DNA from: Escherichia coli
GTDB taxonomy: Bacteria; Pseudomonadota; Gammaproteobacteria; Enterobacterales; Enterobacteriaceae
Assembly: GCF_003790525.1 (NCBI RefSeq)
Contig: NZ_CP033635.1
Strand: one strand, 5' to 3'
DNA length: 64,000 nucleotides
The translations under genes were made by a program, and so were the position numbers. Positions within the stretch are counted from its first letter, which is position 1. Each line of letters opens with the position of its first letter. Of this stretch, positions 21,324 through 22,142 are shown in pieces. The notes beneath the pieces are model-generated. The model had not been told where the DNA came from. It saw only the letters and a program-made list of their open reading frames with translations, and ran no database searches.

Positions 21324-21540
21324 AGGTATATTGCTCAATCTTCGAACGGGGGGGAGGATTGTAGCAGAATCGCATTTGAATGTGACCGAGTGAAAACCGC
21401 TAACCGGATGGCTGCGGATGTTTAAATCAGAGAGGGAAGGCCGAAACCGGAGTTCATCATGAATCCATTAGACTTAGAAAATATCGGGTCGTAACGTTGT
21501 GTTATTACTTTTTCAGAGTTTACTAAGGAGAGGTTTACTC

Positions 21541-21990
21541 GTGGCGATTAATTTCAGCCCCAAGGTTGGTGAAATACTGGAATGCAACTTTGGTAACTAT
21601 CCTGTTAGCCAGAATGGACAGTTCAGCACGACGTATTACGATGGCCGCATTCCACCTGAGATGATAAAAAATAGGTTGGTTGTCGTGCTCAACGGAAAAA
21701 TTAATGGCAACGCATGTATCGTCGTTCCATTATCAACCACTCGCGACCATGACAAGTTAAATCGTGGAATGCATGTTGAAATAGCCAGTAATGTTATCAA
21801 TGACCTGCAATTCTTTGATCAGCAGATACGTTGGGCTAAAGCCGACCTGGTACAACAAGTCAGTCGAAATCGATTAAACAGAGCAAGGACTTATCGGGGG
21901 TATCTTAATCAATGTTTGCCACATGAGTTGGTTGCAGACATACAGAGGGCAGTCATCAAGTCAATCAATGCCATATCGCTCATAAATTGA
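21541..21990 (+). CDS. yifN: PemK/MazF-fold toxin-like protein (yifN-like), apparently intact and without an adjacent antitoxin gene
   Basis: GTG start 10 nt after an AAGGAG Shine-Dalgarno; N-terminal VGEILECNFG and later RLVVVL...CIVVPLST resemble the PemK/MazF fold; the track ORF begins at an alternative upstream GTG (21499). Confidence 0.6.
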   Translation: MAINFSPKVGEILECNFGNYPVSQNGQFSTTYYDGRIPPEMIKNRLVVVLNGKINGNACIVVPLSTTRDHDKLNRGMHVEIASNVINDLQFFDQQIRWAKADLVQQVSRNRLNRARTYRGYLNQCLPHELVADIQRAVIKSINAISLIN

Positions 21991-22066
21991 CAATAAAATC
22001 ACCATCCCCGATAATGACTCTGTAGCCCATAGAGGCCCTAAGTTTTCTCCCCTTGAGGGACCTGCG

Positions 22067-22090
22067 AAGCCCGGATTTTCCGGGCTTTTG
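22067..22090 (+). terminator. Intrinsic terminator-like hairpin (AAGCCCGG-loop-CCGGGCTT followed by TTTT) after the yifN-like ORF
   Basis: 8-bp GC-rich stem and T-tract read from sequence. Confidence 0.55.
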
Positions 22091-22142
22091 CCATATATGT
22101 CCCCCCCTCCCTGACTGACAATTTTTAATTCAAGGCACGATC

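Follow-up and report, generated by a model that had tools for sequence, protein, structure and literature searches.

The yifN gene lies between rep (minus strand) and ppiC (plus strand) on the Escherichia coli contig NZ_CP033635.1, of which a stretch of 64,000 nucleotides (nt), hereafter the window, was analysed, and it is followed on the same strand by a small RNA (sRNA) gene. The yifN coding sequence (CDS) extends on the plus strand from a GTG start codon at 21541 to 21990, with its TGA stop codon at 21988–21990, and encodes a protein of 149 residues with a long β1-β2 loop. A strong Shine-Dalgarno sequence serving this GTG, AAGGAGAGG (21525–21533, plus strand), was assigned by reading the sequence. 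An alternative upstream GTG opens an in-frame extension (21499–21540, plus strand), which adds 14 residues and yields an isoform of 163 residues. A Ribo-RET preprint reported initiation of yifN at the annotated start as well as at an upstream in-frame start (10.1101/520783). The extension shows no conservation beyond Escherichia, and in the alignment the YifN homologues of other genera begin at the M-A/P-I-N position.

An earlier inspection of the window, made from the letters alone (the sequence-only reading), had described an intact open reading frame (ORF) from the GTG at 21541 to 21990, or of 163 residues from the upstream GTG, had placed it between rep and ppiC, and had equated it with yifN, a possible pseudogene in K-12. 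The frame is indeed open and matches the RefSeq annotation in both coordinates and position. The yifN region of the window is 100% identical to the chromosome of E. coli AR_0013, where RefSeq calls a 'type II toxin-antitoxin system PemK/MazF family toxin' at identical coordinates. In a K-12 derivative, yifN is annotated as a 'frameshifted' pseudogene, which bears out the sequence-only reading on this point. The ORF itself is a gene that has already been annotated.

YifN as a member of the MazF/PemK family

In a Pfam search, YifN matched PF02452 (PemK) with 42.7 bits (E = 7.5e-11) against a curated cut-off of 23.1 bits, residues 37–141 corresponding to profile positions 14–108. The VGEILECNFG strand and the long loop fall outside this alignment. 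YifN gave no NCBIfam match and no match to the defence-system models of PADLOC. An AlphaFold2 model, calculated with 90 homologues, reached a predicted local distance difference test score (pLDDT) of 72 and a predicted template modelling score (pTM) of 0.66, with strands at residues 11–16 and 44–51. The β1-β2 loop between them (residues 17–43) comprises 27 residues, the E. coli MazF loop about 10; the excess of approximately 17–23 residues is close to the insertion of 'about 25 residues' noted beforehand between the first strands. When the model was compared with the PDB using Foldseek, the top 50 matches were all MazF-family toxin structures (target-normalised TM-score, TMt, of 0.61–0.79), 49 of them at E ≤ 1e-3. 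PDB sequence and family-profile searches with YifN returned only unrelated proteins at chance level (E ~0.6–1.3), so that YifN is a divergent branch. Combined, the profile search and the structure prediction bear out the PemK/MazF-like character first read from the N-terminus, and membership of the MazF/PemK family and an SH3-like barrel with a C-terminal helix are confirmed at the level of sequence and predicted fold.

Twelve residues are invariant over the 90 YifN members, including E40, R45 and S65. These align to E24, R29 and T52 of MazF (Glu, Arg and Thr, the last replaced by Ser in YifN) in a weak profile alignment with a probability of 6%, where the motif pairs are PPEMVKNRLVVVL/GSEQAGHRPAVVL and VVPLST/CVPCTT for YifN and MazF, respectively. 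E40, R45 and S65 are probable equivalents of the MazF catalytic residues. The ratio of nonsynonymous to synonymous substitution (dN/dS) of yifN is 0.02–0.05 between E. coli alleles at a synonymous divergence (dS) of 0.18, indicating strong purifying selection, and 0.05 between E. coli and Superficieibacter, whose yifN likewise sits between rep and ppiC. With its invariant MazF-like residues and low dN/dS, YifN looks like an active enzyme.

No ORF of at least 25 residues is present between rep and yifN except those overlapping the start of rep, and none occurs downstream before ppiC. The 200 bp 5' of yifN hold only tiny ORFs and no antitoxin-sized gene, in agreement with what the sequence-only reading had stated. 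One of these, an 11-residue ORF starting at 21459, was considered as a missed antitoxin and rejected, since it lacks conservation and its ATG start codon is replaced by GTG in K-12. Across nine genomic contexts compared, no conserved neighbouring ORF of at least 25 residues was found beside yifN; in Serratia, Photorhabdus, Winslowiella, Superficieibacter and on the plasmids of Pseudomonas and E. coli, the neighbours all differ and share no common small ORF. An adjacent and co-transcribed protein antitoxin, by which type II systems are defined, is absent from the yifN locus. Two plasmid-borne relatives with 38% and 32% identity (L060, 975–1139, and L061, 987–1178) carry a small upstream ORF in addition to a downstream twin-hairpin RNA. 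These ORFs encode 54 and 63 residues, respectively, and the longer one runs into the 5' end of the toxin gene; neither has a significant Pfam match, and a role as protein antitoxin or as regulator is conceivable for them.

The small RNA gene downstream of yifN

Alignment of the DNA downstream of yifN from unrelated genomic contexts revealed a conserved block whose conservation exceeds that of yifN itself. A covariance model built on 36 sequences defines this block in the window as an sRNA gene of approximately 70 nt (22022–22092, plus strand), which begins with GUAGCCC and contains two hairpins, a U-rich linker and a terminator. Its 5' end is located 31 nt beyond the yifN stop codon. A sigma-70 promoter with 11 of 12 consensus matches precedes it on the plus strand, consisting of a -35 box TTGACA (21987–21992), a 17-nt spacer and a -10 box GATAAT (22010–22015), whereby the -35 box includes the TGA stop codon of yifN. 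A promoter with at least 8 of 12 matches was found upstream of all 43 sRNA instances (43/43), at an equal offset in nearly all of them.

Hairpin R1 (22025–22036, plus strand) has a GCC/GGC stem and the loop CAUAGA, and its stem is 100% paired in 41 distinct sequences. Hairpin R2 (22049–22059, plus strand) has a CCC/GGG stem, with the variants UCC/GGA and GCC/GGC, and the loop CUUGA, and is 96.6% paired. Both loops are of the CWUNGA type. The intrinsic terminator, AAGCCCGG-AUUUU-CCGGGCUUUU (22067–22089, plus strand), is 99.2% paired, with compensatory changes in 6 of its 9 pairs. The 'terminator hairpin' previously noted downstream of yifN is the 3' end of a separate sRNA gene. Standard base pairs make up 98.9% of the pairings over the 41 sequences, and 10 of the 15 pairs show compensatory changes. 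This covariation is present in all three helices, and the observed values were reached by none of 500 shuffles. Distant sRNAs carry flipped hairpin stems, namely GGC/GCC in Pseudomonas pPHE20 and CGG/CCG in Haemophilus and Glaesserella, but retain the loop type, and some beta-proteobacterial loci possess three hairpins instead of two. A single long helix between R1 and R2 was considered instead of two local hairpins and rejected, as only 66% of its positions pair, compared with 97–100%.

The two hairpins and their loops are the most constrained parts of the sRNA, which suggests that the RNA is recognised by a protein. Between E. coli alleles whose CDS differ by the dS given above, the sRNA is identical at 71 of 71 nt. 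With its conserved 5' end, U-rich stretch and terminator with a U tail, it is shaped like an Hfq-type sRNA. In the 64-kb window, the covariance model (R1) gave one sense-strand match (82.2 bits, E = 3e-18); the only other match was to an antisense terminator (12.7 bits, E = 0.77). Neither the window region nor 48 kb of sequence covering ten diverse yifN loci matched any Rfam 15 family at E ≤ 1, the pemK RNA motif included. In K-12, an 'sRNA downstream of yifN, same strand' was detected by RNA-seq and northern blot by Romero et al. (PMC4681348), and we equate it with the RNA at 22022–22092 on position and strand only. A literature search found no paper tying yifN to an RNA partner. The sRNA gene is unannotated in the window, and its assignment is well supported.

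Linkage, distribution and decay of yifN and the RNA

Homologues of YifN of about 150 residues, which carry the JGI label "YifN (PemK superfamily)", occur among the gamma-proteobacteria in Enterobacterales, Pseudomonas, Aeromonas, Shewanella and Legionellaceae, and among the beta-proteobacteria in, for example, Roseateles, Cupriavidus, Massilia and Herbaspirillum. Plasmid-borne copies are found on F-type plasmids of E. coli, on IncP-7 plasmids of Pseudomonas (e.g., pCAR1) and on small plasmids of Pasteurellaceae, and further relatives belong to a PHROG of unknown function and to prophage-like viral contigs. The clade is small, with only 49 of 1.84 billion cluster representatives at 50% identity reaching E ≤ 1e-10.

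To survey linkage, 41 gamma- and beta-proteobacterial genome loci with a YifN relative were compared, of which 35 are intact. The RNA was found within 1 kb of yifN in each of the 35 intact loci. In 32 loci it lies on the yifN strand, with a median distance of 33 nt from the stop codon to its 5' end (range -12 to 61); therefore, the RNA promoter overlaps the end of the reading frame. Where the arrangement departs from this, the RNA is still close by: in Shewanella it is convergent, and in Massilia and Herbaspirillum it is divergent and about 800 nt upstream, separated by a winged-helix gene, with two RNA copies in Herbaspirillum. In this beta-proteobacterial variant (L053, 478–2145; L050, 632–2142), the RNA is situated divergently upstream of a winged-helix gene of 176–191 residues (HTH_36/DnaD_N-like), and YifN follows directly after this gene with a C-terminal extension of about 70 residues rich in Ala and Pro.

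The same association was seen on mobile elements. The RNA is present in 3 of 3 prophage-like viral contigs with YifN. Among plasmid records, 97 contain the RNA and 134 contain YifN, with nearly matching spectra of organisms (65 vs 71 in Escherichia, 18 vs 18 in Pseudomonas and 8 vs 8 in Klebsiella), and the RNA adjoins yifN in each record whose coordinates were compared. The genes flanking the module are wholly different between contexts, and an empty E. coli site lacks both yifN and the RNA. No intact yifN without the RNA was found among the loci examined. Therefore, the sequence-only reading's statement that the toxin has 'no partner antitoxin' holds for protein antitoxins and fails in so far as a conserved sRNA gene accompanies each intact family member examined.

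The linkage was also examined in the reverse direction by a pattern scan of metagenomes for the RNA, in which yifN was located directly upstream in 9 of 11 true matches. In one of the other two, an IS21 element separates a yifN fragment from the RNA, which brings the linked cases to 10 of 11, and in the other the contig provides only 255 nt on the upstream side. In this last contig (L102), the RNA (1113–1193) stands without yifN in the available 255 nt and is convergent with an ORF of 127 residues, which by its sequence looks like a HicB-type antitoxin.

Several plasmid and phage contexts deserve mention in their own right. On the IncP-7 plasmid pCAR1.3 (L010, 1800–10500; also L004–L007), the module is embedded in a long run of small unknown genes on the same strand, which also holds an orphan N6 DNA methylase, a GNAT acetyltransferase and a phosphatase and resembles an establishment or anti-defence region. 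The most distant YifN relatives, with 27% identity, were found in the PE001 elements of Vibrio 'phage' (L188, 1335–1400; L059, 876–1920), where each lies behind a cI/LexA-like S24 repressor gene. Downstream of them come about 2.5 direct repeats of approximately 20 nt (ATTRGAGGKTCATTGAAG), which share a UWGAGG core with the loop and 3' stem arm of E. coli R1/R2. YifN of the F-type plasmid (L009) is 55% identical to chromosomal YifN, while the R1/R2 hairpin sequences of the two are identical (6513–6594 vs window 22019–22096). Judged by these sequences, cross-neutralisation between the chromosomal and the F-type plasmid copies is conceivable.

Where the two genes decay, they do so asymmetrically. 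The RNA is intact in 5 of 6 decayed genome loci. A broken yifN together with an intact RNA was observed for the K-12 allele (1228 genomes) and in loci L034, L038, L047, L056, L057 and L083, and the RNA is still intact next to plasmid and metagenome copies of yifN disrupted by insertion sequences (IS). In these cases the insertion is in or just after yifN, with the intact RNA about 1.5 kb away: an IS21 element in L083 (284–2253), and unidentified insertions in NZ_CP122917 and NZ_MG904994. One-sided decay of this kind would be expected of a toxin and its antitoxin, with YifN tolerated only in the presence of the RNA.

Within E. coli, the segment carrying yifN and the RNA is variably present. In comparison with the empty site of strain JCM 5491, it spans 21367–22125 (approximate boundaries). 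This segment of about 760 bp is absent from approximately 1440 of 5425 complete genomes (~26%), where, as in JCM 5491, the gap between rep and ppiC is 86 nt. The -1 frameshift of K-12 was found with an exact 41-mer query in 1228 complete genomes, i.e. at least 23%. The earlier description of the site as a 'core locus' cannot be maintained in view of these numbers. As nearby single-nucleotide polymorphisms split the yifN alleles in a census by short exact queries, six genomes were sampled instead; five had an intact yifN, and the sixth the K-12 frameshift. From the absence, the frameshift and the sampled genomes together, an intact yifN is estimated for about half of E. coli strains, O157:H7 among them. 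An evolved K-12 line was reported to have gained IS2 in yifN' (PMC4340650), a report that agrees with K-12 yifN being a frameshifted pseudogene.

The yifN region of the window represents a divergent haplotype, with dS of 0.18 to other E. coli alleles and at least 99% identity in only 541 genomes. Compared with K-12 (L002, 3760–3848), about 44 nt between the RNA terminator and ppiC are absent from the window (22090–22142). In E. coli HH97 (NZ_CP116409; L003, 4080–4780), an extremely G-rich stretch of equal length, with a GC skew of up to +0.94, takes the place of the yifN segment. It is about 50% identical to yifN, as if A and C were read as G, and was seen in 1 of 5426 genomes. It is confined to one assembly, is probably a base-calling or assembly artefact and was discarded as a genuine replacement.

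Interpretation and comparison with known systems

We regard it as somewhat more probable than its negation that yifN and the downstream sRNA form a compact two-gene module, in which the RNA is the antitoxin of YifN in the manner of type III systems. In this case YifN would be a sequence-specific endoribonuclease with a MazF fold, probably acting as a dimer, and the RNA of about 70 nt would be made constitutively from its own promoter overlapping the 3' end of yifN. The two mini-hairpins would bind the RNA-binding grooves of YifN, or fill them as pseudo-substrates, plausibly with one hairpin per subunit of the MazF-like dimer, and the enzyme would be kept inactive. When the RNA drops relative to the protein, as may happen upon loss of plasmid copies or phage shut-off of host transcription, YifN would be freed to cut cellular RNA. 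The analysis establishes the predicted fold, the conserved residues, the purifying selection, the lack of a protein partner, the promoter, structure and covariation of the RNA, and its obligatory linkage to intact yifN, whereas toxicity or RNase activity of YifN, its binding by the RNA and its neutralisation by the RNA are inferred. The type III toxin ToxN, whose fold is Kid/MazF-like, is inhibited by an RNA, and one toxIN locus has been noted with the RNA downstream of the toxin (PMC3401426).

Several points speak against this proposal. The RNA is neither a tandem array nor upstream of the toxin gene, and it falls outside the operational definition of type III. Linkage by itself gives neither the direction nor the mechanism of an interaction, and an RNA that is expressed and perfectly conserved where yifN is dead fits an RNA with its own function equally well. 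In addition, the assignment of catalytic residues leans on the weak profile alignments mentioned above, and the β1-β2 loop of YifN is modelled poorly (pLDDT 44–50). Finally, a few distant relatives have an upstream protein gene, namely the 54-residue ORF, the 63-residue ORF, the winged-helix gene and the cI/LexA-like gene, which is possibly a true antitoxin or regulator.

The main rival, which we consider unlikely but by no means negligible, is a ribonucleoprotein without toxin-antitoxin function, in which the RNA is a regulator with its own cellular targets and a non-toxic YifN binds, processes, stabilises or delivers it. The linkage and the conservation of the RNA serve this explanation equally, the Hfq-type shape of the RNA is in line with it, and the RNA is expressed and unchanged in K-12 despite the frameshifted yifN. 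However, one-sided decay, with dead yifN next to intact RNA and never the reverse, is hard to reconcile with an RNA that needs the protein, and the equivalents of the MazF catalytic residues and the frequent carriage on plasmids and other mobile elements better suit an addiction or defence module. No conserved target site was found for the RNA, although no search was aimed at one. Alternatively, the E. coli locus may be the decaying remnant of a mobile module that has no current function and whose open frame survived by chance. Its absence or frameshift in a large part of the genomes (~26% and at least 23%, respectively) and the IS insertions in a metagenome copy and in the evolved K-12 line (PMC4340650) would be explained thereby. 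We hold this to be improbable, because of the low dN/dS both between E. coli alleles and to Superficieibacter and because yifN is intact in most of the sampled genomes.

Pairing of the sRNA with the ribosome-binding site or first codons of the yifN mRNA, which would block translation or trigger decay as in type I systems, has a still smaller chance of being correct. The Shine-Dalgarno sequence of E. coli yifN shows partial complementarity to the linker rich in U and C (UUUUCUCCCC), and the best predicted duplex falls at codons 6–18 in 6 of 17 loci. Nevertheless, the duplex energies against positions -70 to +30 are no better than those of shuffled RNAs (z-scores around zero), the best site varies from locus to locus, and the conservation of the RNA peaks in the two hairpins rather than in a single-stranded seed. 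Being encoded on the same strand, the RNA has no built-in complementarity to the toxin mRNA, which is the hallmark of type I. Antisense control of yifN was consequently rejected, for want of an energy signal above shuffles and of a conserved site. The least credible explanation, to which we give little weight, is a solitary YifN, either a domesticated RNase or a toxin with an unlinked antitoxin, next to which the RNA is an unrelated passenger. No close relative has an adjacent protein antitoxin, and yifN is under purifying selection, both of which this explanation accommodates. A passenger RNA, on the other hand, would not stay about 30–60 nt past the stop codon, its promoter reaching into the CDS, in an arrangement kept in chromosome, plasmid and prophage, in two proteobacterial classes and down to 32–42% protein identity, nor would it be the part retained upon decay of yifN. 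The choice offered by the sequence-only reading, between a domesticated RNase and a toxin neutralised in trans, overlooked the cis-linked RNA just past the stop codon.

To our knowledge, MazF toxins are textbook type II toxins, and each characterised one is restrained by a protein. If the proposed module is correct in full, YifN would be the first MazF/PemK-family toxin neutralised by a dedicated sRNA and would represent a fourth type III-like kind, with reversed gene order, a twin-hairpin RNA and a promoter within the end of the toxin gene. Carried by about half of E. coli, by F-type and IncP-7 plasmids and by prophages, it may act in plasmid addiction or abortive infection. We put the chance of this wider claim at a little under even. 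Type II and type III would then be joined through a relative at the sequence level, beyond their common fold, and the missing antitoxin of what RefSeq annotates here as a type II toxin would be explained. At the same time, an E. coli sRNA known from northern blots without an assigned role would gain a function. Since the RNA hairpins of the chromosome and the F-type plasmid are identical, chromosomal RNAs, including the K-12 copy beside the dead yifN, could shield cells from addiction to plasmid-borne YifN. The module measures only about 600 bp, and strains with intact, frameshifted and absent alleles provide natural controls.

Compared with the MazF/PemK (Kid) toxins of type II, YifN is likewise a member of PF02452 with a MazF fold and, in a weak alignment, equivalents of E24, R29 and T52. 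Those toxins have a MazE/PemI-type antitoxin, whereas none adjoins yifN here or in related genomes; moreover, the β1-β2 loop of YifN is longer, as described above, and a dedicated sRNA gene accompanies yifN. The type III systems (ToxIN, CptIN, TenpIN) share with the yifN module the pairing of a Kid/MazF-superfamily endoribonuclease with a cis-encoded non-coding RNA having its own terminator, and such obligatory linkage of an RNA to this fold was found in all intact loci of the survey. Like the yifN module, they are carried on plasmids and chromosomes (PMC3401426). Their RNA contains repeated units, and the yifN RNA contains two hairpins, or three in some beta-proteobacterial loci. However, the type III toxins are ToxN/AbiQ, CptN and TenpN, while YifN belongs to PemK/MazF, its only Pfam match above threshold. 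The type III RNA is located upstream of the toxin gene and separated from it by a terminator (PMC3401426), while the yifN RNA is downstream with its own promoter. Furthermore, the type III RNA consists of identical tandem repeats of 30–45 nt, in contrast to the two dissimilar hairpins of the yifN RNA. Tandem Repeats Finder and a repeat search detected no tandem array in 21300–22150, and a ToxI-like array up- or downstream of yifN was ruled out on this basis.

Rfam contains a family named the pemK RNA motif (10.1101/2024.10.12.618037). This structured RNA owes its name to the pemK genes with which it is associated, and the yifN RNA likewise adjoins a PemK-family gene. Its covariance model matches neither the yifN region nor the ten yifN loci, in line with the Rfam search described above. 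In Myxococcus xanthus, the toxin MazF-mx is solitary, and its antitoxin MrpC is encoded elsewhere. YifN resembles MazF-mx in being without an adjacent protein antitoxin, but differs from it in having a candidate partner linked in cis, the RNA encoded directly downstream.

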